From: Patescibacteria group bacterium
GTDB lineage: Bacteria; Patescibacteriota; Patescibacteriia; UBA2591; JAQUPP01
Reading direction: 5' to 3'
NCBI GenBank assembly: GCA_028716665.1
Contig: JAQUPP010000001.1
Coordinates: forward strand, 349,046-413,045
Length of the DNA stretch: 64,000 nucleotides
Positions 22,932 to 47,056 of the stretch are shown here, piece by piece; position 1 is the first letter of the stretch, and every line of letters starts with the position of its first letter. The notes under the pieces were generated by a model. It had not been told where the DNA came from. It ran no database searches and saw only the letters and a program-made list of their open reading frames with translations. The position numbers were made by a program, and so were the translations under genes.

Positions 22932-24157
22932 ATTATTTCTTGAATAATTTTTTCTAATTTATTCACTAGAACGGGAATACTATGGTATTTTTCCACATAT
23001 TCTTTACCATTTTGGCCCATTTTTTCTCTCTCTTCAAGTGACGTTTGGCAGAGATGGACAATAGCATCAGCCATTATTTGAGGGTTTTCCGGTGAAATTG
23101 AAATACCGCAATCAGCTTCTTTAACTGGATTATTGGCGGCATTAACTGAGAAAATTATCGGTTTAACAGCTGCCATATAATCAAATAGTTTATTAGAACT
23201 AATGCCATATTTAAAAACTTCAGTTTTTTTGAGATTAAAGATTAATGTATCAGCTTCGTTAAGAGAAGTATAAACTTCGTCTTTGCTTAGGGAATCGCGA
23301 AATTCAGTATTTTTAAGCTGAAGTTCATTTTTATATTTTATAAGATTTTTTTTCTCCGATCCATCGCCGATAAATATAAATTTTATTTTTTCGTATCCCG
23401 TGTCCTGAATGATTCTGGCTGCGTCCAAAACATAATTTAAGGCATTTGCCAAACCGTGAGCGCCAAAATACATGACTTTAAATTTTTCATCAGTTGTTTC
23501 TTTTTTGGAAATATTTTTGAATTTTGTTAAATCAACCCCGTTAGGAATCCAAACAATTTTTTTTTCATCTATGCCCAAGGCGGTTATGTATTTTTTGGCC
23601 AAAGGCAATAAGGTAATTATTTTTTTGGCCTTTTTATATAAAAATTTTTCTAAAATTCTAAGGGTTTTAACAATTAAATTATTTTCTTTTAAATTTCCCA
23701 TATCAACCAGTGTTTGGGGCCAAAGATCCCTTACCTCCATTAAGAATTTTGCTTTGTAATATTTTGTCAGCCAATATGCCGAGAGGACGGCCAGTAAATG
23801 AACCGAAGAGCCGATAATAATATTCGGTTGTTCAATATTTTTGTTTATTTTGGTTATTTTTTTTCCGAGGCAATATGTTCGACACATGTACGAAAACATA
23901 TTTATCACTCTTTGCCAATCATTTTTTTGATAGGGAAAAGTTTTTATCCAAACAAAATTTATTCCATCAATGTTCTCTATAAGATATTTTTCATTTTTAG
24001 TTAATTTAATTTCCCGGCGTAAACTAAAATGAAAGCTAGAGGCGAATATGGTCACCTCGTGTCCTCTTTTTACTAATTCTTTGGCAAAATCATAATGCCT
24101 GGTGCCGCTGGGCATATCAGGAGTAACAGCATAATGATTTAATATCCAAATTTTCAT
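22928..24157 (-). CDS. Family 4 (GT-B) glycosyltransferase, WbuB-like.
   Basis: N-terminal KIWILNHYAVTPDMPSGTRHYDFAKELVKRGHEVTIFAS and a C-terminal GT-B sugar-donor domain. Confidence 0.7.
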   Translation of the reverse strand: MKIWILNHYAVTPDMPSGTRHYDFAKELVKRGHEVTIFASSFHFSLRREIKLTKNEKYLIENIDGINFVWIKTFPYQKNDWQRVINMFSYMCRTYCLGKKITKINKNIEQPNIIIGSSVHLLAVLSAYWLTKYYKAKFLMEVRDLWPQTLVDMGNLKENNLIVKTLRILEKFLYKKAKKIITLLPLAKKYITALGIDEKKIVWIPNGVDLTKFKNISKKETTDEKFKVMYFGAHGLANALNYVLDAARIIQDTGYEKIKFIFIGDGSEKKNLIKYKNELQLKNTEFRDSLSKDEVYTSLNEADTLIFNLKKTEVFKYGISSNKLFDYMAAVKPIIFSVNAANNPVKEADCGISISPENPQIMADAIVHLCQTSLEEREKMGQNGKEYVEKYHSIPVLVNKLEKIIQEII

Positions 24158-26031: not shown

Positions 26032-27570
26032 TTAATGACTTTTAAGTAATATTTTTGTAAGCGCTATTATATTTCTTTGATCCATCTCATATTTATCGAC
26101 AAGGCACTTATTTCTTTCCCACTGACTAAAATAATAATTTTTGGCAATATCATTAATTTCAGGATTAAAACGAGATAGTTCTGTTAAGTGCCATATTGTT
26201 AAAATACGATTATAAATTTCTTCTTCTCCATTTACTAATTTATGAAATAATGGATTTTCCATGTCTCCATTCCATAAATTTTTAATAAAAATATTTGCCA
26301 AATTCATCACATCATCTTTCGTAAATATAATATTATTTTCATAAGCCCTTATTATAAAATCTATATCTAAATTGCCATGCGAAATATCTTCAATGTTGTC
26401 TTTCTCGACTATTATCGCAGAACTGTTTTCAAAATAACCAGAATATGGCCAGATTATATTATTATCTTTAATTGTTATCGTATTTTTAAATCCCGCAGCT
26501 ATGTCAACGGCGATTTGTTCATAATTCGGATTATTGAAAATTTGTGAAGCATAAATATTAGCCGTTCCCAATGTTGCCGCAACATTCAATATGGTTCGTT
26601 TTTTTTCTTCATTAGGCCCTTCTTTACTAAACACATAAAATTTTAAATCGGGGTCGTAAAGTTTATTCATTTCGTCCAGCCAATTTTGAGTTATATTTTT
26701 ATCTATTTTTGCCCCAAGAGTAATACCTCTTAATAAAGTTTTTAATATCATTCCATAATGGGCTGAGTGTTCTGAATAACTTTGTACGCTGACCAAGTCA
26801 ATCAACATATCTTTCGATCCTTCAATTATAATTGTATGCTGATTTTGATAAGATTGATTAATTTCGAAATCAGAAGTAAAAATAGTCCATTCATTATTGG
26901 TCGTTTGGAACTCAGATAGGGGAGTATTATCCAATGACACTTTAATTTTAGAGCCCGATGGTGCTTTAAACCAAAACTTCATGAGATATAAAGGATGACT
27001 TTCGGAATCAGTGAATGAAATTGATAATCCTTTTTTATTTAAAAATTCTAAAGCCCTTGATCCGAAATCGATAAGGATATTGTCATTGCAATCCGTAAAA
27101 ATTGGGGGAGCAACTTGTTGAACAGTTTTAAAATTTTTATCTATCACATCTTCAGTATTTTCAAAACTGCCATTTTTTATTAAATTTTCAGAATATCTTG
27201 ATGAAAGTAATTTTTCTTTTGTATATTTTTTAGTTGCTTCTAATATCCCGTTTGTACGATTTTCAAATTTTTCTAAATATATTTTTTTATTGGTAATTTG
27301 ATATAGATCCAAATAGGCATCAAGGATATAACTTTCTTTCCAGGATAGAATCGCCGAATCATAAGACGGGTAGAAATCTGATTCAAAAAATTCTTTATGC
27401 AACGAATAGGGCGATATTTTTTGTTCAATATAATTTATCTGATTGAAAATTTTTTTATTATCTTCCGAAAAATTTATTTTTTCTCTTACTTTTTGAAAAA
27501 TAAATCCGCAAAAGCCGATAACAAAAAGTAAAATTATTATAAATATAACAATTATTTTTTTATTTTTCAT
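26032..27570 (-). CDS. Membrane-anchored protein of unknown function (N-terminal TM helix, then about 480 aa extracytoplasmic).
   Basis: Single N-terminal TM IIVIFIIILLFVIGFCGFIF. I recognise no motif. It is co-directional with its neighbours and overlaps them by a few nt. Confidence 0.4.
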   Translation of the reverse strand: MKNKKIIVIFIIILLFVIGFCGFIFQKVREKINFSEDNKKIFNQINYIEQKISPYSLHKEFFESDFYPSYDSAILSWKESYILDAYLDLYQITNKKIYLEKFENRTNGILEATKKYTKEKLLSSRYSENLIKNGSFENTEDVIDKNFKTVQQVAPPIFTDCNDNILIDFGSRALEFLNKKGLSISFTDSESHPLYLMKFWFKAPSGSKIKVSLDNTPLSEFQTTNNEWTIFTSDFEINQSYQNQHTIIIEGSKDMLIDLVSVQSYSEHSAHYGMILKTLLRGITLGAKIDKNITQNWLDEMNKLYDPDLKFYVFSKEGPNEEKKRTILNVAATLGTANIYASQIFNNPNYEQIAVDIAAGFKNTITIKDNNIIWPYSGYFENSSAIIVEKDNIEDISHGNLDIDFIIRAYENNIIFTKDDVMNLANIFIKNLWNGDMENPLFHKLVNGEEEIYNRILTIWHLTELSRFNPEINDIAKNYYFSQWERNKCLVDKYEMDQRNIIALTKILLKSH

Positions 27571-28690
27571 TGGCGAAAATTATTTCGTAAATTTTTAATA
27601 ATTTTTTGGCTTCCAAATCCCAGTTGTATTTTTCTAAAATTGCTTTTTTGCCGTTTTCTCCCATTTTTTTTGCTTCTTCGGGATGTTTTATTAAATATTC
27701 AATCGCTTCGCCAATCTCTTTCGGATCCAAAGGATTAACACAAATTCCACAATTATTTTTCTCAATGATTTCTTTCCATAAAGGAAAATTTGAAGCAATG
27801 ACGGGCAAACCGGCCGTCATATATTCAAACATTTTAACCGGCAAACTGCTTAAAAAGCATCTATTAGGGTGAAGACAAACAATGCCAATATCCGCTTTGG
27901 CAATTTCTTCAAAAACCTTATTTAAAGAAAGTTCTCCCAAAAAATTTACTTTTGTATATTCTTCAGAACATGCGATTTTCTGTTTTAAAATTTCATTTGA
28001 AAATCTCCCCATCAAATTTAATGAAATTTTGTAATGGCTATTTATTAATTCCATGGCTTTTATGATTTCTTCAATGCCTCTGTTTTTTCCGATTGTTCCG
28101 GTATAGATTAAAACGCATTCATTATTCGCGAAAAAATTATTTTTCGATGTTTTGGAATTAAATTTTAAGAGCGGGTAATTTTTTATCTCAATAACGTTAT
28201 TATTGTATGGTTTAAATTGATCTTTGATATATTCAGTGGCGACGATTATACAATCAAAAAATTTAGATATATTTTTTTCTATAAAATTAACAGTGGAAGA
28301 TAGGGGATGCTTAAAAATCACCGGAATCCATTCTTTGTACAAAATGTCCTTTGGTACATCTTCGTGCACATCATAAATAATCTTGGCTTTTGTAAAAATT
28401 TTTAATAAAACGCCGACTAATATTAGTTCCGGATCATGAAAGTGATAAACGTCCGCTCTTTGTTCCAGCGCTTTTTTGAAAATTAAAAAATCTGTCTTTA
28501 AAAATCTTTCAAGGCGATTTTTTAATTTTGGCAGAGCGATAATTTTAATTCCGTCCACTGTTTCGTTTTTGTCATGTCGGGCGATTAAAGTAACATCATA
28601 ACCAGCCCCAGCTAGAGTTTTGGCTTCTTTGTGAAAAATACGAACATCAAATACGGAGTGGACGGCGGTTATTTGGCAGCATTTTTTCAT
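27560..28690 (-). CDS. Family 4 glycosyltransferase.
   Basis: E-X7-E-like region MFEYMTAGLPVIASNFPLWKEIIEKNNCGI. Confidence 0.75.
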   Translation of the reverse strand: MKKCCQITAVHSVFDVRIFHKEAKTLAGAGYDVTLIARHDKNETVDGIKIIALPKLKNRLERFLKTDFLIFKKALEQRADVYHFHDPELILVGVLLKIFTKAKIIYDVHEDVPKDILYKEWIPVIFKHPLSSTVNFIEKNISKFFDCIIVATEYIKDQFKPYNNNVIEIKNYPLLKFNSKTSKNNFFANNECVLIYTGTIGKNRGIEEIIKAMELINSHYKISLNLMGRFSNEILKQKIACSEEYTKVNFLGELSLNKVFEEIAKADIGIVCLHPNRCFLSSLPVKMFEYMTAGLPVIASNFPLWKEIIEKNNCGICVNPLDPKEIGEAIEYLIKHPEEAKKMGENGKKAILEKYNWDLEAKKLLKIYEIIFANEK

Positions 28691-31600
28691 ATTTTTATTA
28701 AAAATAACAATAATTCCAGAAATATAAATACCAGACCGATATTAAGACAGAGCACCACCATGTCATGCCAGTGCGGTTTGTTTTTAATAAATTCGCGAAC
28801 AAAAAATTTAGATTTATATTTAGCCCATTTTTCGCATGCCTCCAAGAAAATTTTTTCACCGGTGATATCATATAACTCTTTCATAAGTTCCGAATGCAGG
28901 AGATGATATGATTTGGTGGCCATTACGCCCAGTTTATCGTAATAAGTCCACCAGCCAGTATCAAAATCCCAAACATGCTGTTTAAGGTTTATTACTCCTT
29001 TCTCAAGAAGTTCTTTTGCTTTTATATCTTTTGTATTTTTGTAGTATTCATTAACACCGATTAAAGCGTAAATCATACCATTCAAAACCAAACTTTTTTT
29101 GGCGCCTTCACCAACATATTCTTCGTACCACCATCCGCCATCTTCGTCTTTATAGGTTACTCCTCCATCTTTTACTTCCACAAAAAGAGCGTTTAAGGCT
29201 AGTTTTGCGGCTTCCAAATATTTTTCTTCGCCCGTAATTTTATAAACCCTACTGAGAAATTGCAGTCCCACTCCTTGGGCTAGCGCCGAGATCCACGGAG
29301 GAGTTAGATTATATGTCCACGGATAATAATATTCCCAAACCCCAAAAATCAATCCTTTAAAATTTCTCATTTTTAAATTATCCACCAACCAATCAGCGCA
29401 ATTTTTAAAATATTTAAAATATTTTTCTTCTTTCTTTTTTTGCCACTTATCATAATAATCAAATCCGGCCATAGTTACGGTCACGGGGTTATAATATTTT
29501 CCACCTGATCTGCGGATAATAGCTATCGGAATGCCCCTGTCATCGCTTTCCACGTCTCCTTTAAAACCAAAGCCCAAGACGAGATTCATAAGCATCTCGG
29601 CCGGTTTATAAAATAAATCCGCTGTAAAATTTGAAAGAATTATTCCTCCCAGAATGGCCAAAATAAGTAAAATTAATTGGAAGCAGAGAAAATCTTTTTT
29701 TAAAAACCATGGTTTTTTTTCAATTTCAAATTTTACTGAATCAGGAATTGATATTTGGTCTCCGGGTCCTGCCACAACCATAGTATATGTCTGATAACCT
29801 TTTTCATCGGTCGGAAAATCAGAAAGTTCTAATTTTTTAGAATCTGCCCGTTCAAGGGTAAACCAGCCCTTGTCTATGGTTTTTAGCCATCCTTGTGCTT
29901 CAAAACGGCTGTTAAGAACAGTTGTACCGGGTTGAGCAAAATAGGAAGGCATTTGAGAAATTATTTTATTATCAGAAGGTACAACTTCTTCTACTAAACC
30001 CCTGGCTATTTTTAAATCTTCATTGCCAATGGAGAGGTGAGCACTATCAATAATTTTTTCAACGGCTAAGCTGTCTCCGCGTCCATTGGATTCTAAAATT
30101 AAAACTTGTCCTTTTTGCAAAGATTGATTAAGAATCGGATCAGCTAATTCTATAATTCCTTTTTCGTAATCCACTGATGCAATTTTTGTTTTTTGAATGC
30201 CATTACCTTCTAATGAAAAATTGCCGAAAGAAAGACCCTTCCCGTTTAAAAGTGTGGCTTTTTGGATTTGGCCTTTGGAGTTTAAAATTAAAGAAGCTGT
30301 TTGTCCTTTTGCCTTAATTTTCCCGTCAATAATATATTCTTTATCCGGATTAAGAGAGTGAAAAAGATAATGGGTTTCTCCGATATTTAATTCAACTTTT
30401 ACGGCTATTGCCTCGTCGTCAACAGGGTTTACAGAAACAGCCGAAACATTCTTTACCCATGTTTTTTTATTATAAGACTCAAATAAAGAAACAAAAATAC
30501 TGTTTAAATTTTTTCCTTGTTCGCGTCTTATCAAAAATTTTACTGTTTCCGGCAAATCTTTTCTCGTCTGAGGTTTTCCGTCGCAGGCAATAATTTCTTC
30601 ATTATTATTGGTTAAGAAATGAGCCCTTAAACCAATATTTTTATCAGATCCGGTAAGCTGCCAGCCGCAAACCATATTATCTTTAGGTTTGGTTTTTTGA
30701 ACATTAAATAAAAATTGATAACCGCTTCCTTTATATGAAGTATAGTTTGCTTCTCCCCAAGGTTTATTTTTAAGTTCAGGATCGTCATAAAATTTACCAT
30801 ATGGTATGTCGGCTCCGGCCAGAGTTCCTTCTTTTTGAACAGGACCAAATGGAGTTTCACAAGAAAAATTAGCTTGAGTTCCGTGAATTATGTAATCGTG
30901 CTGTTCTCCTCCTTTTACATAAAAAATATCAAGAAGATAACTTTGACCGGGACTTGTTTCAACCAACATATTCACTCGGCGGTAAAGACTGACTTTTTCA
31001 GGGTATGCGTCTTCGCAAGAAACATCCGCTATTTTAATAAAGCTGCTGCTGTCAAAATTATGTAATTTGCAATTCGTGTTATATTCTTGCTTGGATGCAT
31101 TAACTACGACGGTATTGTGAGCCACGGAATTTGCAAAAAAACCAGGCCAACGTGGATCAGAGGCATCTAAGGTTTCGGGATAGCCAAAATCCGTTAAGAG
31201 ACCGTTTCCCTGAGAAAATAAAACCATGTTTAATTTGTCATAGTGATGATGGCCGTAATATGCTCCGTAAAATATGGAACTGGCCGTAGGATTTTTTTTA
31301 TCATTTATTTGAAGAGTAGCCAATCCATAACCGGGAAGATTTACTGATTGGGTGCATAAAGATTGAACGGGTTTTGCCTTTATGGATTTTAACACTTCTT
31401 CAATTGGTTTTTCAAAGAGGTCGCGAGGAATATTTTTTACAGAACCAAGAGCTTGGGCTAAGCGGGGATCTGGAAAATGTCTCAGAGCTGTGGCCAATAT
31501 TTCAGGTTGAGAATTCCATAAAGTATTAACAGCGAACATGTCTCCGGAATCTCCCATTGAAGGCATAAATTTTTCGGCCAAACAAACATTAAAATGCCAT

Positions 31601-32871
31601 GTTAAGAGTTTTTGAAATCTCGGATTTTCAAAAAGATTAATCCCTCTGTCCAAAAGAGCTTCTGCCACTTCAACTAAAGAAGCGGTCCATTCAGAATAAT
31701 TGTAAATGGGTGATTCAAACGGCACGCCATCGCGAGATACTATATTAATTAAGGCGTCTTCTACTCCCATATCAAGGAAAATTTTTACATTCTCTCTTTT
31801 CAACACCCAATCTATCATTTCTTGACTTGTCGGATGTTTTTCTTTTTCATCCAAAACCACGGCTAAACGAATTAATGCTTTCTGGTGGCTGCCGTAATTT
31901 CCATAAATACGATAAGAACCGTCGGTTATGGAACGAGCTATTTCTAAAAGTAATTTTTCTCTAATTTGACTATCTATTTTTGTTGGATTTTGTCCGGTTA
32001 ATTTTTCAAGCTCATTGTCTTTTTGAATAAAAGGATAAATAGCATCATAAGCCAGGGCGTATGTCTCGGCTGGCGGGGGAAACTTTTCGTCCGGTGAAAT
32101 TGATGAGACCTCCCAGGTATGATAAAAAAGTTTTCCTAAAAGTTCTTTATCTACTTCTTTTCCTTCTCGGGACTGTTCTTCATATCGATAATCGGGATAA
32201 TATTGAGATAATTGCCATAATAATAAGGCCGCCTTGTGAGCATATGTATTATTTTCCGTAATTAAAGCAGCCTGACTTAAATTCCAAATGGCCGGTAATA
32301 AAAATTTACGGGCGCTCCAATGGTTATAATAACCGACAAACCAATATTTCTTTCCTGTTTCCGGGTTTGTCCAGCCCCAGCCATCATCCGGATAATTGCC
32401 TGTTAATAAAGAACGGTCATTCATTCCTGATTTTAAAAACTCTGAGAAATTATTTGATGGATACTCTTCGCCGCCCACCGGGCATTTTATTTTTCCGGGA
32501 TTGTTGAAATCAATAATCCATTTATATGAACCCTCTTTATTAATTTCCAGACCGTGAACAGGGCAACCAAAATCACTGATTGTTATAGCTCGCGGTTCTG
32601 AGGGAAGGGGAACTAATGTTTTTAATTTTTCATCCGAAAATTGAGCCCAATAATCCGCTTCATTGACAATTTTATCTCGCATTTCTTTGGCCCACTCATA
32701 TGTTTTTATATTTTCTTTCAAAATAACCAATTTTTCTTCAGTGTAATACGTGCGCCCATCTTTTGCGAAAGTTATGGAAGGTATAAATAAAAAAATACAA
32801 AATAAAACAAAAATGGTTATAGGGGATAATTTTTCACAAATTTTTTTTATTTTAAAATCAAAATCGTTCAT
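28687..32871 (-). CDS. Large bimodular membrane protein. N-terminal signal/TM; an alginate-lyase/heparinase II/III-like domain (about aa 40-1050); an internal TM helix; a C-terminal D-glucuronyl C5-epimerase-like domain (about aa 1100-1394).
   Basis: Heparinase II/III-type block GHHHYDKLNMVLFSQGNGLLTDFGYPETL...ANSVAHNTVVV. TM helix FLCFQLILLILAILGGIILSNF. C-terminus PPWISALAQGVGLQFLSRVY...GGWWYEEY...LVLNGMIYALIGV, matching the GLCE motifs WYSAMAQG / WYEEY / VLNGFMYSLIGL as I recall them. Confidence 0.7.
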   Translation of the reverse strand: MNDFDFKIKKICEKLSPITIFVLFCIFLFIPSITFAKDGRTYYTEEKLVILKENIKTYEWAKEMRDKIVNEADYWAQFSDEKLKTLVPLPSEPRAITISDFGCPVHGLEINKEGSYKWIIDFNNPGKIKCPVGGEEYPSNNFSEFLKSGMNDRSLLTGNYPDDGWGWTNPETGKKYWFVGYYNHWSARKFLLPAIWNLSQAALITENNTYAHKAALLLWQLSQYYPDYRYEEQSREGKEVDKELLGKLFYHTWEVSSISPDEKFPPPAETYALAYDAIYPFIQKDNELEKLTGQNPTKIDSQIREKLLLEIARSITDGSYRIYGNYGSHQKALIRLAVVLDEKEKHPTSQEMIDWVLKRENVKIFLDMGVEDALINIVSRDGVPFESPIYNYSEWTASLVEVAEALLDRGINLFENPRFQKLLTWHFNVCLAEKFMPSMGDSGDMFAVNTLWNSQPEILATALRHFPDPRLAQALGSVKNIPRDLFEKPIEEVLKSIKAKPVQSLCTQSVNLPGYGLATLQINDKKNPTASSIFYGAYYGHHHYDKLNMVLFSQGNGLLTDFGYPETLDASDPRWPGFFANSVAHNTVVVNASKQEYNTNCKLHNFDSSSFIKIADVSCEDAYPEKVSLYRRVNMLVETSPGQSYLLDIFYVKGGEQHDYIIHGTQANFSCETPFGPVQKEGTLAGADIPYGKFYDDPELKNKPWGEANYTSYKGSGYQFLFNVQKTKPKDNMVCGWQLTGSDKNIGLRAHFLTNNNEEIIACDGKPQTRKDLPETVKFLIRREQGKNLNSIFVSLFESYNKKTWVKNVSAVSVNPVDDEAIAVKVELNIGETHYLFHSLNPDKEYIIDGKIKAKGQTASLILNSKGQIQKATLLNGKGLSFGNFSLEGNGIQKTKIASVDYEKGIIELADPILNQSLQKGQVLILESNGRGDSLAVEKIIDSAHLSIGNEDLKIARGLVEEVVPSDNKIISQMPSYFAQPGTTVLNSRFEAQGWLKTIDKGWFTLERADSKKLELSDFPTDEKGYQTYTMVVAGPGDQISIPDSVKFEIEKKPWFLKKDFLCFQLILLILAILGGIILSNFTADLFYKPAEMLMNLVLGFGFKGDVESDDRGIPIAIIRRSGGKYYNPVTVTMAGFDYYDKWQKKKEEKYFKYFKNCADWLVDNLKMRNFKGLIFGVWEYYYPWTYNLTPPWISALAQGVGLQFLSRVYKITGEEKYLEAAKLALNALFVEVKDGGVTYKDEDGGWWYEEYVGEGAKKSLVLNGMIYALIGVNEYYKNTKDIKAKELLEKGVINLKQHVWDFDTGWWTYYDKLGVMATKSYHLLHSELMKELYDITGEKIFLEACEKWAKYKSKFFVREFIKNKPHWHDMVVLCLNIGLVFIFLELLLFLIKI

Positions 32872-34229
32872 ATAATTTTTTCTTCTTGAGGCTCGCTTAA
32901 TTTTATAAGCAAACCGGAGGGCATAATCATTAGATAAAAGAGAGCGATATCTATCGGATCAGTAATAAATAGCCACACGAAACTCAGAAAAAGAGCAAAC
33001 AAAAGAATTCCTTTTCCAACGGCTCTTTTTGTAAATAAAATTTTGCGAGCAGTAAGTAAAAAATTCATCAATAAGAGCAAGAGTCCGGTCAGTCCGGTTC
33101 CGACATAAATTGCGGGAAATCCTATTTCGGACAAATAATTTGAAACCGATTTCGCTATATCCGGTCTGCCATATTCAATCCATAAATTAACGAAATAGGG
33201 ATGGGTTATGATGGCGGACTTTCTAAAACCATAGCCAAAAAAGAAATTTCCCCAATTTGAATTTTTCATAGCCTCAAAAGCTGCTTGAATATGAAATGTA
33301 CGGCTTACATCGCCCATATCAAAGGCCTCGGCGGGCGGTTTCCAGATAACATAAAAAGTTTTCCATAAAAGTTCGCCTAAACCTTTAAAAGTGTAGCTTG
33401 ATGGTGAAAGTATTGTGATAAATATAATTAAAACAAGCAGAAAAATAATGGAATACAGAAAGAATTTGCGAAAACCGATTATTGGCAAGGCCATAATTAA
33501 AAAACCGATAATACAAAGTTGAGTAAGTCGAGAATTATAATAAAAAGCGGAAAATAATATTACTATCAAAGTTATCCAGCCGATTCTTCGATAAAGAGAA
33601 CTCTTGTCTTTAATCAGAAAAAATATGGCAGGCAGGGCAATGAGCAGGGGAAATGCCGCATATGTAGTGCCTCCCCAAAAAAGATTTTGAATGGCCCATC
33701 TTCCTGTTTGCAACCAAAATAGTCCTTTTCCGGCAATACTATCATAGAATACACCAACTAAAATATATGCTGCAAAATATACCAAAGAACTGTTGGCGAT
33801 TATTAATGATAATTTTCTTTTTGAAAGCAAAAAGGGCGTTCTTGGAAGGCAAAACGCAAAAATACCCAACATACCGAAATAAACCATCCACCGGAATTTT
33901 CTTAAGCTCTCCATTTCCACCATTCCATAGAAACTTTGGAAAACCATATAAATAATCATTGAGAAGAAAAACAATTCATGAAGCTGATCCCAAATATCTT
34001 TTTTGTCTTTATGGAGATGAAATTTTTGGATTGAAATGGCCAGAAAAATTCCGATTAAAATACAACCCAGAAGATATTCGTCCGGCAGGCCGATTTTTTG
34101 AATAACTATACCGCTGGCTCCTATGGAAGCCATAATTAACAGAGGCCAAAAATAATTTGGTTTTAAAGCCGCGATTATTAAAAATACAAATCCGATTATT
34201 CCAATTAAACTTGTTAAAAACAAAACCAT
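32868..34229 (-). CDS. Wzy-type polymerase / O-antigen-ligase-like polytopic membrane protein.
   Basis: About 12 TM helices with a larger loop. It sits between the epimerase fusion and the glycosyltransferases, and has the general Wzy_C-like organisation. Confidence 0.55.
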   Translation of the reverse strand: MVLFLTSLIGIIGFVFLIIAALKPNYFWPLLIMASIGASGIVIQKIGLPDEYLLGCILIGIFLAISIQKFHLHKDKKDIWDQLHELFFFSMIIYMVFQSFYGMVEMESLRKFRWMVYFGMLGIFAFCLPRTPFLLSKRKLSLIIANSSLVYFAAYILVGVFYDSIAGKGLFWLQTGRWAIQNLFWGGTTYAAFPLLIALPAIFFLIKDKSSLYRRIGWITLIVILFSAFYYNSRLTQLCIIGFLIMALPIIGFRKFFLYSIIFLLVLIIFITILSPSSYTFKGLGELLWKTFYVIWKPPAEAFDMGDVSRTFHIQAAFEAMKNSNWGNFFFGYGFRKSAIITHPYFVNLWIEYGRPDIAKSVSNYLSEIGFPAIYVGTGLTGLLLLLMNFLLTARKILFTKRAVGKGILLFALFLSFVWLFITDPIDIALFYLMIMPSGLLIKLSEPQEEKII

Positions 34230-34269: not shown

Positions 34270-35445
34270 CTATTTAATCCAGATAATATTTTTTATTTTA
34301 GGTATTCCCCAAAACCAAACACCGGGAATTGGATGATTGAGAAGATATTTTTTAATTATATTTTTTGAACCGAAATTCACAGTAGGTTCCGGGGAAGTGT
34401 ATTGAGAAATCCGATAATCATCAATATAAAAATTTATCGTGCCCGAAGAAGTCGCGCTTATTGGTCCGAACGATCTCAGATTATCAGAGGTTGCAATTGG
34501 CGTTTGATCGTTATATTCAAGAGGAATATCTCCCAGATCATCTCCGTCCACATAAGTTTTTTGAACAGAGTTTTTAAAATCTAAAATCACTTCAGCTTCA
34601 TACCAAGTATTATAGGAATATTTTTTGTCATTGGGAAAGGCGATCGGACCGGCTGGTTGGCAGCGATGCCTGAATGAACCAAGCCCATCACCATTCGGTC
34701 CGCCAAAAAATAAATTGCATGAATAGTTTATGGTATTATCATGAGAATCATGGCTGGTAAAAACTATAAATCCCGCTGAGCACGATTCCACCGATCCATT
34801 ATCGGTTCTGGCCCAAGTTTGAATGCGAATATTTTGTTTTTGTCCGGTATAACCTGTGAGCATATACCCGCCCGGCTGATCCGCTTCAGTGGTAGTGCAT
34901 TTGCCTGAATGCAGTCCTTTTTTAACAATGGAATTTTCAATACTCCATTCATCGTCCGGCACGCCCCATCTACTGAAATTTTTTGATTCAAAATCGTCAA
35001 AAAAGATAAACGTTTTAGGTCCGCTACTCCTGCTTTTTGCTTTTAAATTTCCATAATACATATAGATTATTTTTTTTGAATATGCGGAAATATCAGGTAT
35101 TTCTACCCAAAAAGTCGCCAAAGTTGAATCAATCTTTGATTCTAACCAATAATCTATTAGTGAGGTTCCATCAGAATCAGTGAATCTGATGCCATCAAAA
35201 TCAGATTGCATGCCCAAATCATAAGCAACAGGAATTTTGATTTGGTAATTTATTAAATCAGAAGAATTATTAGTATTGTCAATTGTTATTGATTCTCTAT
35301 AGCGCCAATGACAAAAAATTTCAATTTGTATTATTATAATAATACAAATTAATACAAAGGCCAAAAGAAAAATTTTTAGAAGTATTTTTTTCAGCTTAAT
35401 TTTTGGTTTATCTTGTTGGGGCGAATATTTTTTACCGAATATCAT
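34270..35445 (-). CDS. Membrane-anchored DUF2341 + concanavalin-A-like lectin/glucanase-fold protein.
   Basis: N-terminal TM, then DFDGIRFTDSDGTSLIDYWLES...IIYMYYGN (DUF2341 signature). This is the same module as the two copies in the giant protein at 1-5688. Confidence 0.6.
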   Translation of the reverse strand: MIFGKKYSPQQDKPKIKLKKILLKIFLLAFVLICIIIIIQIEIFCHWRYRESITIDNTNNSSDLINYQIKIPVAYDLGMQSDFDGIRFTDSDGTSLIDYWLESKIDSTLATFWVEIPDISAYSKKIIYMYYGNLKAKSRSSGPKTFIFFDDFESKNFSRWGVPDDEWSIENSIVKKGLHSGKCTTTEADQPGGYMLTGYTGQKQNIRIQTWARTDNGSVESCSAGFIVFTSHDSHDNTINYSCNLFFGGPNGDGLGSFRHRCQPAGPIAFPNDKKYSYNTWYEAEVILDFKNSVQKTYVDGDDLGDIPLEYNDQTPIATSDNLRSFGPISATSSGTINFYIDDYRISQYTSPEPTVNFGSKNIIKKYLLNHPIPGVWFWGIPKIKNIIWIK

Positions 35446-39600: not shown

Positions 39601-40929
39601 TTATTTTGAAAAATTAAAATATTTATTCTTAATTAAAATAATCAGATTTTGATATAATTTTATATCAGCTTTTTTAAGAAACAAAAGATCTTTAATATTG
39701 TTGCCGGAAATTTTAATATAAACTACGGAGGTTATAAAAAAACTAATTGTGTAAGAAATTGAAGTGGCAGTGGCGGCTCCGATAATACCGAATTTTGGAA
39801 TCAAGATAATATTTAAAACAGTGTTTATAACAAGGGCGCTTGCCGTAATGTAAGTATTTAACATTGGCTTGCCGCGTCCAAAAAAATCATGAGCCAATAT
39901 TATTCTGCCGCTAAGCATTACCATTCCTATCAGTAATATTTGAAACGGCAAAACTGAATTGATAAATTGTTTGGAATAGAGAAGTGTTATTAACCAATGA
40001 CCAATCAAGAAAAGAAAAGCGGCTAATAAAAACATAATAAAGAGGGTATTTCGACAGACCAGAGGAGTGAATTCTTTAATTTTTTTTTCGTCTGTTTCAG
40101 ATGACACTCGCGGAAAAAGAACCGTACTGATTGAATCGGGGATCAGCCAAAGCTGTTCCGATATGCCGGTAGCGATTGAATAAAGGCCAATTGCCATCGG
40201 GTTTAAAAAAATATTAATCAAAAAAGTATCTATTCTGGACTGCCAGACGGAAAAAAGATTGCTCGAATAATTTTTTATTCCGTATAAAAAAAAGTCTTTA
40301 AAAATATCTTTATTTAATGAAAAAATCGGCCTTCCTATTTCTTTTTTGATTTGAAAAAATAAAATAATGCAAGGAACAAACCAGGAAGCTATCAGGGCTA
40401 TCATTATTGTGCCGACAGTGATACAGTGTTGCCATAGAAAAATGACCATTAAGGTCAGAAATAAAATCGGTTCTATCAAATTAATTAAATTATATTTTTT
40501 GAAATTTTGAATTCCAGAAAAAATACAAATTATATATTTTAAAAAAAACCAAGAAGGAATCAAAAATAAAACAGACAAAAGATATTCACGGGGTACATGA
40601 GGGAAAATTTTATTTCCAAAAAAGAAAATAATAATCAGCCCGATTAAAATTGTAAAAATACTAATTAAAATTGAAAATAAAATGTTTGCGCCAAAAATTT
40701 TATTTAATGAATATTTCTTTTTCCCTATATAAAAAACCGAAGATGATCCAATTCCAAAATCAGTAAAATTTATCAAAATTACTTGAAATAGAATTATCAG
40801 AGAATAAATTCCTTTTTTTTCCGGACCAAGAGTTCGAGCAACAATAACAGAAATCACTATTCCCAAAATAACATTTAAAAATCTGGCGACAAAGGTGATT
40901 AAACTGTCTTTTGTAAATTTACCAATCAT
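39601..40929 (-). CDS. Wzx-type oligosaccharide flippase (polysaccharide biosynthesis protein, MOP superfamily).
   Basis: About 12 TM helices and the typical Wzx N-terminus (FTKDSLITFVARFLNVILGIVISVIVARTLGPEKKGIYS). Confidence 0.75.
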   Translation of the reverse strand: MIGKFTKDSLITFVARFLNVILGIVISVIVARTLGPEKKGIYSLIILFQVILINFTDFGIGSSSVFYIGKKKYSLNKIFGANILFSILISIFTILIGLIIIFFFGNKIFPHVPREYLLSVLFLIPSWFFLKYIICIFSGIQNFKKYNLINLIEPILFLTLMVIFLWQHCITVGTIMIALIASWFVPCIILFFQIKKEIGRPIFSLNKDIFKDFFLYGIKNYSSNLFSVWQSRIDTFLINIFLNPMAIGLYSIATGISEQLWLIPDSISTVLFPRVSSETDEKKIKEFTPLVCRNTLFIMFLLAAFLFLIGHWLITLLYSKQFINSVLPFQILLIGMVMLSGRIILAHDFFGRGKPMLNTYITASALVINTVLNIILIPKFGIIGAATATSISYTISFFITSVVYIKISGNNIKDLLFLKKADIKLYQNLIILIKNKYFNFSK

Positions 40930-41966: not shown

Positions 41967-43055
41967 TTATTTTAATTTATTCAATATATTTTTAACAATT
42001 TTTTTTGCAGTTCTACCGTCGCCGAAACAATTAATTTGTTTTTCTTTAGGGTTAAAGAATTTAATTGCTTTGATAATTTTTTTCTTATTATTGCCGACTA
42101 AAATATTCCAACCATATTTGCGTGTTTCTATCCATTCAATAGTATCTCTCAGGGTGATACAGGGAGTTTTGGCAAAATAAGCTTCTTTTTGAACTCCCCC
42201 GGAGTCGGTTAAAATTTTTTTTGCATTTTTTTCGAGCCAAAGCATATCCAAATAGCCCACCGGAGTTATAATTTTCAATTTGCATTTTTCAATTTTCAAT
42301 TTGAGTTTTTTTAATTGTTTCTGCGTGCGGGGGTGGATTGGAAAAATAACTTTTTCATTGCTTTCTTGAATTGCCTCAAGAATTTTTTTTAAATTTTCGG
42401 GGTTATCCACGTTTGAAGCGCGATGAATGGTTAAGAGACAATAAGCTTTTGGTTTTAAATCTAAGATTTTTAAAATTTTAGATTTTTTTTGCGCGATTTT
42501 AATATTTTTTAAGAAGACGTCATACATCAAATCTCCCGTGTTATAAACATTTTTAATGATATTCTCTTTCTTTAAATTTTTTATCGCGGTTGGAGTCGGG
42601 CAAAAAAGAATATCAGAAATATGATCGGTTAAAATGCGATTGATTTCTTCCGGCATATTCATGTCTCCGGAGCGCAGTCCCGCTTCAATATGGGCGACTG
42701 GAATGTGTAATTTTGCCGCCACAAGAGCTCCGGCCAAGGTAGCATTAACATCGCCAACCACAATTACTAAATCAGGTTTTTCTTTCAAGCAAACTTTTTC
42801 AAATTCAATCATCGTTTTGCCGGTTTGCTCGCCATGAAGACCAGCCTTAATGCCCAAATTGTAATTTGGTTTAGGGATATTTAATTCTTTAAAAAATGCA
42901 CCGGACATTTTATAATCATAATGCTGTCCGGTGTGAACAAGAATTGGCTTGATTTTCTGATATTTTTTAAATTCTTTAAACAAGGGGGCAATCTTGATAA
43001 AATTAGGCCTCGCGCCGACAACGCACAATACTTTTATTTTTTTATTTTGAGGCAT
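41967..43055 (-). CDS. Non-hydrolysing UDP-N-acetylglucosamine 2-epimerase (WecB/WbpI family).
   Basis: KVLCVVGARPNFIKIAPL, HIEAGLRS, DSGGVQKEA. Confidence 0.88.
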   Translation of the reverse strand: MPQNKKIKVLCVVGARPNFIKIAPLFKEFKKYQKIKPILVHTGQHYDYKMSGAFFKELNIPKPNYNLGIKAGLHGEQTGKTMIEFEKVCLKEKPDLVIVVGDVNATLAGALVAAKLHIPVAHIEAGLRSGDMNMPEEINRILTDHISDILFCPTPTAIKNLKKENIIKNVYNTGDLMYDVFLKNIKIAQKKSKILKILDLKPKAYCLLTIHRASNVDNPENLKKILEAIQESNEKVIFPIHPRTQKQLKKLKLKIEKCKLKIITPVGYLDMLWLEKNAKKILTDSGGVQKEAYFAKTPCITLRDTIEWIETRKYGWNILVGNNKKKIIKAIKFFNPKEKQINCFGDGRTAKKIVKNILNKLK

Positions 43056-44145
43056 AAAATTCCTTGATTTTTTGGATGATATGACTTTGTTCTTTTTGAG
43101 AAAGTTCCGGATAAATAGGCAGTGACATTACTTCTGTTGTCGCTTTTTCAGTTTGAATGAAATCGTTTTCTTTATAACCTAAATTTTTAAAAACAGGCTG
43201 GAGATGAAGCGGTACCGGATAATATATCACAGAAGGAATATTATTTTTGGTTAAATACTGTTGGAGTTCATCGCGTTTTTGCGCCCGAATGGTGTATTGA
43301 TGATAAACATGTTCGTTATTTTTGGCGAGATAGGGGACGGATATTCCTTTTATTTTCGCCAAACTCTGATTATATTTTTTTGCTTTTTGTTGGCGTCCTT
43401 TTACCCATTTATTCAGATATTTTAATTTAACTCTCAGAATTGCCGCTTGAAGAGCATCTATGCGGCTGTTGACCCCGAGAGTTTCGTGATAATATTTTTT
43501 CCTTGAACCATGCTGGCGAAGCATTTTTATTTTTTCAGCCAATTTTTCGTTATTGGTCAAGACCATTCCGGCATCGCCGTAAGCGCCGAGATTTTTTGAA
43601 GGGAAAAATGAAAGACAACCGAATTCGCCGAAGGATCCGACATTTTTTCCTTTATATTTGGCGCCAATGGCTTGAGCGCAATCCTCAATAACATAAAGTT
43701 TATGTTTTTTTGAGATTTCCATTATTTTGTCCATTTCACATGGTTGGCCGTAAAGATGAACCGGAATTATGGCTTTGGTTTTCGCGGTAATTTTTTCTTC
43801 AATTTTATCAGTATCAATATTAAAAGTTTTAGGATCAATATCAACAAAAATCGGTTTGGCGCCGCGGACAGCGATTACTTCAGCTGTGGCAAAAAAAGTG
43901 AAAGGAGTGGTAATAACTTCATCTCCAGGACCAATATCAAGAGCCATTAATGCGAGAAGGAGAGCATCTGTTCCGGAATTAACGCCAATGGCATATTGCG
44001 TTTTGCAATACGCGGCAACTTCTTTTTCCAATTCAGTCACTTCTTCACCTAAAATAAAATGAGCATTGTTTAATACTTTGCTAACAGCCTTGTTAATTTC
44101 TTTTTTAATGGATTTATATTGAGCGGTAAGATCTAAAAATTGCAT
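43042..44145 (-). CDS. DegT-family aminotransferase (third copy), WbpE-like by context.
   Basis: NSGTDALLLALMALDIGPGDEVITTPFTFFATAEVI. It is flanked by WbpD-like and WbpI-like genes. Confidence 0.85.
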   Translation of the reverse strand: MQFLDLTAQYKSIKKEINKAVSKVLNNAHFILGEEVTELEKEVAAYCKTQYAIGVNSGTDALLLALMALDIGPGDEVITTPFTFFATAEVIAVRGAKPIFVDIDPKTFNIDTDKIEEKITAKTKAIIPVHLYGQPCEMDKIMEISKKHKLYVIEDCAQAIGAKYKGKNVGSFGEFGCLSFFPSKNLGAYGDAGMVLTNNEKLAEKIKMLRQHGSRKKYYHETLGVNSRIDALQAAILRVKLKYLNKWVKGRQQKAKKYNQSLAKIKGISVPYLAKNNEHVYHQYTIRAQKRDELQQYLTKNNIPSVIYYPVPLHLQPVFKNLGYKENDFIQTEKATTEVMSLPIYPELSQKEQSHIIQKIKEFYASK

Positions 44146-44173
44146 ATAAAAATTAAATTATTAAGTTGATAAA

Positions 44174-44761
44174 TTATATTTGCTTGACTGTCTTTTTTTC
44201 TTTTAAATATTTTTTGCCGCAAATTTTACAAACGGATTTATTGTTTTTAAATTGCAACTTGTTGCCGCAATCGCAAACCCAATCATGAACAGCAGCCGGT
44301 ACACCGTAAGCCAAAGCGTAATCAGGGATATCTTTAGTAACAACCGAACCGGCACCGATAAAAGCGCTTTTGCCGATGGTGGCGCCGCAAACAATTGTGG
44401 CATTGGCGCCGATTGATGCGCCTTCTTTAACCAAAGTGGATTTCCATTTGCCGTATTCCGGATATTTTTTCTTTGGAAATTTTGCGCGCGGATTAGGATC
44501 ATTGGTGAAAACCGCCGACGGTCCGACAAAAACATAATCTTCCAAAGTAACTAAATCCCAAGCGTCAACATTGGATTCCAATTTAACGCCATTGCCCATT
44601 TTTACTTGGCCGCCGACAAAACAATTATGTCCGACCATGCAATTTTCGCCGATTTGCGCGCCGGCTAAAACCTGGCTGTTTTGCCAAATTTTTGTCCCGG
44701 AACCGATTTTTGCTCCCGGTGAAACTTCTGCTGATGAATGTGTCCAAAATTTTTTTTCCAT
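44174..44761 (-). CDS. Left-handed beta-helix (hexapeptide-repeat) sugar N-acetyltransferase (WbpD/PglD-like) with an appended C-terminal zinc-ribbon.
   Basis: Hexapeptide repeats IGENCMVGHNCFVGGQVKMGNGVKLE. The C-terminal extension is WVCDCGNKLQFKNNKSVCKICGKKY. Confidence 0.8.
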   Translation of the reverse strand: MEKKFWTHSSAEVSPGAKIGSGTKIWQNSQVLAGAQIGENCMVGHNCFVGGQVKMGNGVKLESNVDAWDLVTLEDYVFVGPSAVFTNDPNPRAKFPKKKYPEYGKWKSTLVKEGASIGANATIVCGATIGKSAFIGAGSVVTKDIPDYALAYGVPAAVHDWVCDCGNKLQFKNNKSVCKICGKKYLKEKKTVKQI

Positions 44762-44768
44762 ATTTTTT

Positions 44769-45767
44769 TTATGATAATTTAATTATTTTACCTTTTTTAT
44801 CTAAAGATTCTTGGCAAGCATTTAAGATTTTTAAAACACTTAATGCTTCTTTTCCGTCGCTTTTAGGATTTTTGCGAGTATTGATGCAATCAAGGAAATG
44901 CTGGCATTCTTGACGCAGCGGCTCAGATGGCGGCAGAGAAATTATTTCTCCTTCCGCTTTTTTCGCTTCCGGAATTTTGCCGAGCCATTCAACTTTATGA
45001 GGATAAACAACCAATTTATTTTCTGTTTGATCGTCAAAAACAGCCATTTTTTTCTCGCCGATTACGGATAATTTTTGTTCTTTAAAAGGATTAAGCCAAG
45101 AAACAAAAATATGAGCGGCTTGATTTTTATCAAATTCAAAATAACTTAAAGTGCTGTCTGCCACGTCTTTATTCAGCCAATCCATGCCATGGCTGCAAAT
45201 TTTTTTAGGCAATTTTCCCATTAAATCAATAATGACCGCGATATCATGCGGAGCAAACGACCAAAGAATATTTTCTTCAGTGCGAAGTTTGCCGAAGTTA
45301 AGACGATTGGAATGAATATAGCGGATTTTTCCCAGTTCTCCCTGTTCAATCAATTCTTTTAATTTAATCACGGCCGGATGATAAAGAAGAAGATGCCCGA
45401 CCATTAAAATGCATTTTTGTTTTTCGGCTAATTTCACCAATTCCTCGCCATGCTTGATATTCAAAGCCAAAGGTTTTTCGACAAAAACATCCTTGCCGGC
45501 CAGAAGAAATTTTTTAACCACTTGATAATGGGTGGCGGCCGGCGTGGCAATGACCACGCCTTTGATATTTTTATCAAGCGCCACGTCTTCAAATTTTTGC
45601 GTAGTATTAATTTCCGGATAATTTTTTTTCAGAGCATCAAGCGCGTTTTGATTAAGATCACTAACGGTTTTTAAAACGCCTAACTCATAAAAATTTCTAA
45701 CTAAATTTTTACCCCAGTAACCACTGCCGATTACCGCGATATTTTTTTTTGATGATTCTATAACCAT
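44769..45767 (-). CDS. Gfo/Idh/MocA-family NAD-dependent oxidoreductase, WbpB-like (UDP-GlcNAcA 3-dehydrogenase) by context.
   Basis: N-terminal Rossmann IAVIGSGYWGKNLVRNF and the Gfo/Idh/MocA C-terminal domain. Confidence 0.75.
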   Translation of the reverse strand: MVIESSKKNIAVIGSGYWGKNLVRNFYELGVLKTVSDLNQNALDALKKNYPEINTTQKFEDVALDKNIKGVVIATPAATHYQVVKKFLLAGKDVFVEKPLALNIKHGEELVKLAEKQKCILMVGHLLLYHPAVIKLKELIEQGELGKIRYIHSNRLNFGKLRTEENILWSFAPHDIAVIIDLMGKLPKKICSHGMDWLNKDVADSTLSYFEFDKNQAAHIFVSWLNPFKEQKLSVIGEKKMAVFDDQTENKLVVYPHKVEWLGKIPEAKKAEGEIISLPPSEPLRQECQHFLDCINTRKNPKSDGKEALSVLKILNACQESLDKKGKIIKLS

Positions 45768-47056
45768 AATACATTTTTAAATTTTCTATTTTTAATAGCG
45801 TTGCGCGTGTCAACCACTAAAAGCGATTTTTTAGCCACTTCATCATAATTGAGATTAGAGTGATCGGCTAAAATTAAAACGCAATCATAATGTTTAAGAT
45901 TTTTTGGTTGATATTCAATGGATTTTAAATTTTTATTGTCAATTCTAAATTCCGGAATATATGGATCAAAATATTCCACATTGGCTCCTTTTTTCCAAAG
46001 ATCGCGAATGACATGATAAGAAGCTGACTCTCTTGGGTCGGCCACGTCTTTTTTATAAGCAACACCCCAAACTAAAACCTTGGCTCCGTTTAAAGATTTC
46101 TTATGCTGATTAAGTCCGGAAATAACTTTTGTTACGACAAAATGGGGCATTCCATCATTTATTTCACCGCCCAATTCTATAAATCTTGTATAAAACCCGT
46201 ATTCTTTGGCTTTCCAGGAAAGATAAAACGGATCAAGTGGAATGCAGTGTCCTCCGATTCCAGGTCCGGGATAAAATGGCATAAATCCGTAGGGTTTTGT
46301 TTTGGCCGCTTCAATCACTTCCCAAATATCAATACCCATTTTCCCGCATAAAAGAGCCAATTCGTTAATCATTGAAACATTGACTATTCGGAAAGTATTT
46401 TCAAGAATTTTTGTCATTTCCGCGGCTTCAGGCGAAGAAACTTTAAAAACTTTTTCCAAGAATGATCTATAAACTAAATTTGTAAGTTTGGTGCATTTAG
46501 GAGTAATACCGCCAACTACCTTGGGAACATTTCTGACGTTGAATTTTTGATTACCCGGATCAATTCGTTCCGGCGAAAAAGCCAAGAAAAAATCTTTTCC
46601 CACTTTTAAACCGGATTTTTGAAGAACAGGCAAAATAACTTCGCGTGTTGTTCCGGGATAAGTGGTGCTTTCTAAAATTATTAATTGCCCTTTTCTGATA
46701 AAACGGGCAATTTCTTTAACCGTGGATTGAATATAAGTAATGTCAGGCTGTTTGTATTTATCCAAAGGAGTGGGAACACAGATAATAATCACATCGGCAA
46801 GCTTTAGAATTTTTTTATCCGTGGTGGCTGAAAATTTTTTAGATTTAAGAACCCCTTGCAAATCAGCCGAAGAAATATCGGCGATATAAGAATGACCTTG
46901 ATTGACCAACTTAACTTTATTTTTTTGAACATCAAAACCAAAAACTCTGAATCCTTGCTCGGCTAATACCACGGCCAGCGGAAGTCCCACATAACCGAGT
47001 CCGATGATTGTAATTTTAGCTTTTTTGTTTTTAATTAATGTTTCTAAATTTTTCAT
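45758..47056 (-). CDS. UDP-N-acetyl-D-glucosamine/-mannosamine 6-dehydrogenase (WbpA/WecC family).
   Basis: ITIIGLGYVGLPLAVVLAEQGFRVFGFD (NAD binding) and the catalytic-cysteine block GGHCIPLDP. Confidence 0.85.
   Translation of the reverse strand: MKNLETLIKNKKAKITIIGLGYVGLPLAVVLAEQGFRVFGFDVQKNKVKLVNQGHSYIADISSADLQGVLKSKKFSATTDKKILKLADVIIICVPTPLDKYKQPDITYIQSTVKEIARFIRKGQLIILESTTYPGTTREVILPVLQKSGLKVGKDFFLAFSPERIDPGNQKFNVRNVPKVVGGITPKCTKLTNLVYRSFLEKVFKVSSPEAAEMTKILENTFRIVNVSMINELALLCGKMGIDIWEVIEAAKTKPYGFMPFYPGPGIGGHCIPLDPFYLSWKAKEYGFYTRFIELGGEINDGMPHFVVTKVISGLNQHKKSLNGAKVLVWGVAYKKDVADPRESASYHVIRDLWKKGANVEYFDPYIPEFRIDNKNLKSIEYQPKNLKHYDCVLILADHSNLNYDEVAKKSLLVVDTRNAIKNRKFKNVLWL

Follow-up and report, generated by a model that had tools for sequence, protein, structure and literature searches.

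C5-epimerases and lyases of uronic-acid polymers both begin their chemistry with abstraction of the C5 proton. For alginate, the C5-epimerase AlgG and the lyase AlgL are separate proteins acting on the same polymer and encoded together in its biosynthetic operon, and AlgE7 is bifunctional, with a single active site. In the glucuronyl C5-epimerase of animals (GLCE), the catalytic residues are given, in human numbering, as E499, Y500, N510, Y560 and Y578 (PMC13308652, citing Debarnot 2019); according to the same source, the enzyme of Bermanella marisrubri (Raedts 2013) is the sole bacterial homologue tested biochemically. Since Raedts et al. 2011 (PMC3068255), prokaryotic genes of this family (Pfam PF06662) are known from Wzx/Wzy glycan clusters; their settings include O-antigen, capsule and archaeal glycan clusters. 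Escherichia coli O112ab, whose O-antigen contains L-iduronic acid (L-IdoA), carries one such gene, Gae (PMC7685785). Here we describe a gene in which a GLCE-like module is joined to a complete lyase-like module. It lies on a stretch of 64,000 nucleotides, hereafter the window, from a Patescibacteria group bacterium (assembly GCA_028716665.1, contig JAQUPP010000001.1, positions 349,046 to 413,045, forward strand). An original prediction made from the letters of the window had proposed a member of the candidate phyla radiation (CPR), and an identical protein, as well as the RecA and enolase of the window, are indeed labelled Patescibacteria in NCBI.

The gene is a genuine, lineage-specific, end-to-end fusion in a Wzx/Wzy-type surface-glycan locus of this bacterium. 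Both parts are known kinds of enzyme, and only the fusion is new. The open reading frame, at 28687..32871 on the minus strand, runs without interruption from an ATG start to the stop codon at 28687-28689, and encodes 1,394 amino acids (aa). Its start overlaps by 4 nt the stop of an upstream 453-aa gene with multiple transmembrane (TM) segments, and its stop overlaps by 4 nt the start of a downstream family 4 glycosyltransferase (GT4) gene, so that it sits in a tightly packed operon. Pfam C5-epim_C (PF06662) matched aa 1177-1350, over profile positions 5-187 of 188 (E 1.6e-43, 148.8 bits for a gathering cut-off of 23.3), and Hepar_II_III_C (PF07940) matched aa 535-592 (E 2.5e-9, 37.5 bits for a gathering cut-off of 24). 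Three hydrophobic segments were detected by a hydrophobicity scan, at aa ~16-36, 1061-1082 and 1371-1392. With the secondary structure of AlphaFold2 (AF2) models, the layout of the protein is as follows.

32764..32871 (-): signal peptide, aa 1-36, with an n-region KIKKICEK, an h-region and a cleavage-like site between TFA and KD (hydrophobicity scan)
31357..32763 (-): (alpha/alpha) toroid of the N-terminal module, aa 37-505, with candidate catalytic N325/H329 (31885-31899) and Y390 (31702-31704)
30427..31356 (-): beta-sandwich of the N-terminal module, aa 506-815, with the Hepar_II_III_C match (31096-31269) and H541, H543, D561, Y564 and H585
29722..30426 (-): extra all-beta C-terminal domains of the N-terminal module, aa 816-1050 (AF2 secondary structure); this region and its end are also present in stand-alone homologues
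29626..29691 (-): TM helix between the modules, aa 1061-1082 (hydrophobicity scan; part of a long AF2 helix with confidence above 90)
28777..29577 (-): GLCE-like C5-epimerase domain, aa ~1099-1365, with the Pfam match (28822-29343) and E1251, Y1252, N1264, Y1311 and Y1322
28696..28761 (-): C-terminal TM helix, aa 1371-1392, followed only by the residues KI

Reading frame, Pfam matches and hydrophobicity scan all agree with the two modules and single intervening TM helix that had been predicted for a 1,394-aa protein. The motifs quoted in support (GHHHYDKL, SVAHNTVVV, WISALAQG, WWYEEY and LVLNGMIYALIGV) are all found in it, and the Hepar_II_III and C5-epimerase families were each matched above gathering score in the half where they were expected.

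No evidence was found for an artefact, i.e. two genes merged by a sequencing or assembly frameshift, although the two halves do match gene families that are otherwise separate. Against this reading, NCBI has the identical reading frame in three entries (MDD3101649.1, MDD5164180.1 and MDD5534486.1, from three contigs, up to 640 kb long, of Patescibacteria metagenome-assembled genomes), under the name 'D-glucuronyl C5-epimerase family protein [Patescibacteria group bacterium]'. In an independent assembly from another sample (SRR8542065), a fully syntenic locus (L001) encodes an orthologue of 1,393 aa (P0001, 89% identity), with the same continuous frame, the only indel being of one codon and well away from the junction. 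Between these two genes (dS ~0.5), the ratio of non-synonymous to synonymous substitution rates (dN/dS, Nei-Gojobori method) was 0.07 for the toroid, 0.08 for the beta-sandwich, 0.20 for the extra beta domains (aa 816-1050), 0.08 for the C5 domain, and 0.07 for the linker and TM helix at the junction (aa 1051-1100), which are 94% identical; the least conserved segment was the signal peptide (69% identity). Such low values indicate that both modules and their junction are under purifying selection. The NCBI entries, the orthologue and the conserved junction thus rule out a frameshift or misassembly, whose probability we regard as negligible, and the gene is a single intact one, as had been supposed.

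The rarity of the fusion was assessed by an exhaustive phmmer search with aa 800-1394 against 1.84 billion cluster representatives. Among the 4,318 matches, the cluster of P0001 alone spans the junction. Relatives of the C5 module are encoded at 387 loci in 185,579 species-representative genomes, the best being a 48%-identical Nitrospirales gene, and in none of the 79 GTDB-representative loci that were retrieved did a relative of the N-terminal module lie within 6 kb of a C5-epim_C relative. A wider functional link between the two families found no support in these loci or in the junction search. Literature searches returned no description of this architecture, nor of such enzymes in Patescibacteria. 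In keeping with the earlier remark that no such fusion was known, this lineage is the only one to carry it in the set searched.

The C-terminal module belongs to the GLCE family, as predicted. Compared to the PDB by phmmer, it matched zebrafish GLCE (4PW2, 1.9e-15) and human GLCE (3.3e-14), and the top eight PDB matches of its AF2 model (51 sequences; predicted local distance difference test, pLDDT, 92.4) in Foldseek were zebrafish and human GLCE (E 3e-11 to 3e-10, probability 1.0). The GLCE residues E499/Y500/N510/Y560/Y578 align with E1251/Y1252/N1264/Y1311/Y1322 of the fusion, all five invariant in 16 close homologues, so that the catalytic Glu and Tyr residues whose conservation had been proposed as a check are in place. 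GLCE (4PW2, 6HZZ), the Bermanella homologue and the fusion have in common PF06662, the five catalytic residues and the alpha-helical barrel catalytic domain, for which GLCE is the best structural match. The alignable part of 4PW2 is chain residues 373-576 in phmmer, and 221 of ~516 columns in Foldseek. Unlike animal GLCE, the module has no N-terminal beta-hairpin and beta-sandwich (dimerisation) domains by phmmer, Foldseek or AF2; TM helices flank its domain, and between TM helix and barrel AF2 places ~40 residues with three short strands. The genomic setting differs as well: the fusion belongs to a Wzx/Wzy locus whose putative pathway is one for a diacetamido-uronic acid rather than for heparosan.

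Stand-alone homologues of this module (340-380 aa, at most 59% identity) cover it end to end, including both TM helices, and the helix between the modules of the fusion is homologous to the one that precedes their catalytic domain. In Nitrospirales and in other genomes, from other phyla, these proteins hold the syntenic position in a Wzy-C5 epimerase-GT4 cassette. The gene order is methyltransferase, Wzx, DUF2334, FemAB-like, GT4, GT, Wzy, C5 epimerase, GT4 at locus L003, and Wzy-like, C5 epimerase, GT4 at L004 and L005. By tblastn, orthologues of three genes of the window, the Wzy-like gene, GT(429) and the downstream GT4, directly flank the stand-alone C5 gene at L003, L004 and the Nitrospirales locus L007. 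The Wzy-like gene is 40% and 38% identical to the Wzy_C genes immediately upstream of the C5 epimerases of L003 and L004, and orthologues of the GT4 (42-50% identity) lie 6-45 bp downstream of the C5 gene at L003, L004, L005 and L007. Since stand-alone C5 genes fill the same position of the cassette, the epimerase is the original occupant of the locus and the fusion the derived state. The epimerase half is thus ordinary in kind: enzymes like it are known from prokaryotic glycan loci, among them Gae, with which it shares the family and the type of genomic context; those proteins are single-domain, whereas the fusion adds a ~1,050-aa N-terminal module. As a normal resident of such cassettes, C5 machinery is not in itself unexpected, contrary to what had been suggested for a CPR-like organism, GLCE-family genes being known from prokaryotic Wzx/Wzy clusters.

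The C5-epim_C family contains other long proteins (P0226, P0230, P0272, P0284, P0288, P0304, P0322, P0330, P0262 and P0302), and a domain scan found no heparinase domain in these ten. The architectures seen (P0288, P0304, P0226, P0322, P0284 and P0330 among them) comprise GT4 plus C5-epim_C without TM helix, polysaccharide deacetylase plus C5-epim_C plus discoidin, and dockerin-bearing forms; TIG domains occur too in some, and in one architecture two C5-epim_C domains come after an N-terminal region of eight TM helices. The GT4 of the GT4-C5 fusions was considered as an orthologue of the downstream GT4 of the window, and is not one; these proteins support a possible cytoplasmic site, not a specific partner.

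The N-terminal module was predicted to be heparinase II/III-like, which the PF07940 match, the toroid and sandwich and the Foldseek results all confirm. A full-length search returned 165 relatives which, P0001 excepted, are stand-alone proteins of ~1,000-1,100 aa with PF07940 only; the few with a named source come from Planctomycetes, Armatimonadota, Lentisphaerae and Kiritimatiellia. At their N-terminus they have a classic signal peptide and then an RTYYT motif, as the fusion does, and they end at AGPGDxxxIP, the motif that precedes the junction in the window. From these shared start and end motifs, the fusion is a complete secreted enzyme joined end to end with a complete TM-C5 epimerase-TM protein. 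The one homologue whose genomic context was examined (P0003, locus L002) has as neighbours further Hepar_II_III/DSE-like_N proteins together with a GDSL esterase and a cellulase, i.e. a catabolic context. The closest stand-alone homologue (P0002, 60% identity, L006 1874-5059) has an in-frame TAG at codon 999, beyond which homology runs to the normal C-terminus of the family, followed by a hydrophobic stretch. Read-through by genetic code 25 is ruled out for it, the stop being TAG and not TGA; the TAG is a nonsense mutation or else a sequencing error of the contig.

The AF2 model of the module (64 sequences; pLDDT 92.7, predicted template-modelling score 0.90) consists of the toroid (aa 37-505), the beta-sandwich (506-815) and the extra beta domains (816-1050). 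Its best Foldseek matches are ulvan lyase of polysaccharide lyase (PL) family PL40 (3.5e-25) and PL17 alginate lyases (~1e-24), followed in order by PL39, HepIII, PL15, HepII and PL33, then DS-epi1 at 1.6e-12. A profile of the family gave the same two leading groups in the PDB (4.4e-22 to PL40, 6e-20 to PL17). In the family-profile alignment, Y390 aligns with the catalytic Y258 of Alg17c (equivalent to Y257 of HepII). In sequence comparison with Alg17c, the GHHHYDKL, TDFGY and AHNT stretches align with its His and metal motifs GHGHFDKL, TDYG and AHNT. Among 64 homologues, Y390, H541, H543, Y564 and H585 are invariant; conservation reaches 90% or more for D561 and for both candidates of the GNYGSHQ stretch, N325 and H329. 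With the catalytic Tyr and the His and metal motifs of the sandwich aligned and conserved, the active site looks intact (His/Tyr/His/Tyr plus metal site, the toroid His being a candidate). The spacing of H541/H543/D561/Y564 (+2, then +18 counted from the second His, and +23 for Y564) is that of H450/H452/E470/Y473 in DS-epi1 (numbering from PMC13308652 and PMC8006597). Dermatan-sulfate epimerase 1 (DS-epi1; 6HZN) is of the same fold class, with identical H-x-H...(D/E)..Y spacing, and shows that this fold is able to epimerise. The module is not an orthologue of oligoalginate lyases, as it scores 23.4 bits with the NCBIfam equivalog NF042990, far below the cut-off of 1400, and it falls outside the dermatan-sulfate epimerase sequence family (Pfam DSE-like_N, PF16332). 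It differs from PL17 (Alg17c, AlgL17) and PL40 (Uly1040) lyases by a low identity (15-19%), by ~235 extra C-terminal beta residues, by its membrane tether, and by its place within a biosynthetic operon.

The remainder of the locus bears on what the two modules might act upon.

32868..34229 (-): Wzy-like polymerase gene with multiple TM segments, 453 aa, upstream of the fusion gene (homology and synteny to Wzy_C genes)
27560..28690 (-): GT4 glycosyltransferase, 376 aa, downstream of the fusion gene and overlapping it by 4 nt
41967..47056 (-): five WbpA/B/D/E/I-family genes, in that order (family-level matches)
39601..40929 (-): Wzx-type flippase (Polysacc_synt_3 / Polysacc_synt / MurJ)
21399-22328: WecA/MraY-family initiating transferase
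12916-13848: Wzz chain-length regulator
24154-26016: AsnB-type amidotransferase

Flippase, polymerase, initiating transferase and chain-length regulator make this a Wzx/Wzy-dependent locus, which also holds several GT4s, a PglF-like dehydratase and aminotransferases. The predicted placement beside a Wzy-like polymerase in such a locus is retained, with the reservation that the polymerase is assigned by homology and synteny, the 453-aa gene having no Pfam or NCBIfam match. The five Wbp-like genes encode an NDP-sugar 6-dehydrogenase, a GFO/IDH/MocA oxidoreductase, a hexapeptide acetyltransferase, a DegT aminotransferase and a WecB-type 2-epimerase, and probably supply a UDP-2,3-diacetamido-uronic acid. 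It is a fair inference that the glycan of this locus is uronic-acid-rich and heavily N-acylated; the more specific proposals made earlier, a glycosaminoglycan-like polymer and a manno-to-gulo conversion, are conjectural.

Our joint reading, which we hold with slightly better than even confidence, is that of a lineage-specific fusion between a GLCE-family epimerase and a captured secreted lyase for one uronic-acid polymer, split across the membrane. The membrane-anchored C-terminal module (aa ~1050-1394) would invert C5 of a hexuronic acid residue in the repeat unit, likely the 2,3-diacetamido-uronic acid made by the Wbp-like genes, to give its L-configured epimer through the Glu/Tyr/Asn/Tyr/Tyr site of GLCE. 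The lipid-linked repeat unit would be its substrate, and the cytoplasmic face, beside the GT4, its place of action. The N-terminal 1,050 aa, taken over whole from a widespread family of stand-alone, secreted PL17/PL40-like enzymes, would most likely be a lyase that cleaves or trims this polymer outside the cell, in chain-length control, release or clearance. The best reading would accordingly pair epimerase and lyase for one polymer in the manner of AlgG and AlgL, from GLCE and heparinase-type folds. AlgG, AlgL and AlgE7 are of unrelated folds (beta-helix, PL5) and alginate is synthase-dependent rather than Wzy-dependent; AlgG and AlgL are also separate proteins, and AlgE7 uses one active site, whereas the fusion has two separate modules. 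We infer the identity of the substrate, the lyase rather than epimerase chemistry of the N-terminal module, the topology and the physiological role alike.

A signal peptide and exactly one TM helix (22 aa) before the C5 domain predict, by parity, that this domain is cytoplasmic and that the last TM helix places the 2-aa C-tail outside. By default, and with modest confidence, we therefore place the lyase-like module outside and the epimerase at the cytoplasmic face beside the GT4, so that joint action of the two modules at the polymer level, as originally proposed, is not the default reading, a single TM helix predicting opposite sides of the membrane. The same parity is found in the five closest C5 relatives (P0121, P0123, P0126, P0127 and P0129) and likewise in the Nitrospirales gene, which have two N-terminal TM helices and short, weakly charged C-tails. 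Cytoplasmic C5-epim_C members do exist, since two GT4-C5 fusion proteins have no TM helix between their GT-B and C5 domains. The main rival, which we consider unlikely, has both modules outside the cytoplasm, acting together on the growing polymer, with the stretch 1061-1098 not putting the C5 domain in the cytoplasm. It draws on 49 typical stand-alone homologues, the great majority of them, whose single N-terminal TM helix, positive N-tails and strongly positive C-tails predict an outward domain, on N-terminal signal peptides reported for many prokaryotic homologues (Raedts et al., PMC3068255), on dockerin- and discoidin-fused C5-epim_C proteins, which are clearly extracellular, on the polymer-level action of GLCE and DS-epi1 (PMC8006597), and on four lysines directly before the TM helix 1061-1082 that fit an N-in orientation. 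It is opposed by the one TM-length helix that follows a module with a canonical signal peptide, by AF2, which gives residues 1055-1098 as a single continuous helix without hairpin, by a C-tail (KI) devoid of the positive charge typical of outward-facing forms, and by the two N-terminal TM helices of the closest relatives. Within the C5-epim_C homologues (P0121-P0330), the predicted membrane side of the catalytic domain varies, from the 49 outside to the small two-TM clade inside.

Several observations weigh against our joint reading. A cytoplasmic C5 domain would invert the topology predicted for the 49 typical homologues, and the positive-inside signal around the TM helix 1061-1082 is weak or contrary. 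In the N-terminal module, two attempts with sequence profiles left the H329 stretch unaligned to the known catalytic His (Alg17c N201/H202, HepII H202), and its distance to Y390 is 61 aa for 55-56 aa in known enzymes. On the substrate side, the Wbp-like genes match NCBIfam at family or subfamily level without reaching any equivalog threshold; of the complete UDP-ManNAc3NAcA pathway announced earlier, all five families in the right order are there, and the assignment stays at family level. Finally, the N-terminal fold and active site are common to a true epimerase: since DS-epi1 and heparinase II share all catalytic residues, and 'minute changes' may switch a lyase to an epimerase (Hasan et al., PMC8006597), sequence cannot decide between the two chemistries. 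The N-terminal module may have been recruited as a DS-epi1-like C5-epimerase, the protein then being a double epimerase, with both known glycosaminoglycan-epimerase folds, for two different uronic acids, or for one residue at two stages, which we find improbable. About as doubtful, or a little more so, is a two-compartment editor, with a GLCE-like domain at the cytoplasmic face working on the lipid-linked unit and, tethered to it across a single TM helix, an extracellular domain of DS-epi1/PL type that has turned from a lyase into an epimerase; if true, the protein would unite both glycosaminoglycan C5-epimerase folds known, and a minimal CPR cell would add L-configured uronic acids to its surface polymer at two stages. 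A lyase is most likely, because sequence and structure are nearer to lyases and because of the nature of the donor family; the epimerising partner foreseen in the original prediction finds no support, the module being a recently captured copy from a secreted family whose nearest structures are PL17 and PL40 lyases. CPR bacteria are commonly surface-attached symbionts, and the lyase-like module might instead be aimed at a foreign glycan, e.g. the host-cell capsule of a presumably episymbiotic cell, the fusion serving as anchor and for co-expression. The secreted, stand-alone nature of the rest of the family, the catabolic context of its one examined member and the lack, in the sets searched, of any other genome linking the two families, by fusion or within 6 kb, would suit this explanation. 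We nevertheless hold it to be very improbable, as translational coupling ties the gene to Wzy and GT4 in a biosynthetic operon, as junction and both modules have been conserved under purifying selection, and as a lone C-terminal TM helix would have sufficed as an anchor.

The prokaryotic GLCE family is large, at 4,318 representative clusters for one bacterial member tested, and the fusion offers it a natural 'Rosetta stone', in which a PL17/PL40-type module and the Wzy and GT4 steps of repeat-unit assembly are tied to a GLCE-type epimerase. It raises the question of whether epimerases of this type work on the lipid-linked unit before it is flipped or afterwards, a question framed by the contrasting topologies predicted in one family (one or two N-terminal TM helices, TM-less GT4 fusions). 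What is new is that, in this lineage, a complete PL17/PL40-like enzyme has been captured at the N-terminus of an epimerase; no established view is overturned. A reduced CPR genome appears to invest in elaborate surface-glycan editing, and the two modules are compact candidate enzymes for engineering glycans that contain L-uronic acids.

Other genes of the window were noted. The gene that directly follows the GT4 (26032-27570, minus strand) encodes a 512-aa protein with an N-terminal anchor. Searches of Pfam, NCBIfam and PDB sequences gave no match for it, and its conservation is limited to the sister locus L001 (88%); it might be a partner specific to the lineage, or have come in together with the N-terminal module. 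A TM-anchored DUF2341 protein of 391 aa (34270-35445, minus strand) is inserted just upstream of the Wzy-like gene, and is absent from the syntenic L003. Also within the glycan locus, a TPP-dependent E1 alpha/beta pair, found in L003 as well, and a class I/II aminotransferase (16899-20258, minus strand) suggest an unusual acyl or keto-acid substituent on the sugar. Divergent from the main locus, a second Wzx-like flippase (47194-48648, plus strand) and a 755-aa protein with a Wzy_C/O-antigen-ligase domain, C-terminal TPR repeats and a TTG start (48649-50916, plus strand) suggest a second glycan or a ligation step. At the beginning of the window, a gene with a GTG start (85-5688, plus strand) codes for 1,867 aa; lamin-tail domains occur four times in the protein, together with a Big_13 domain and DUF2341. 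A 23S rRNA intervening-sequence protein of the four-helix-bundle family is encoded at 9691-10047 (plus strand), flanked by ftsK and an HTH gene; the window has no rRNA. Two tandem paralogues of cofactor-independent phosphoglycerate mutase (53633-55210 and 55234-56814, both plus strand) lie beside the phosphoglycerate kinase (PGK) and enolase genes.

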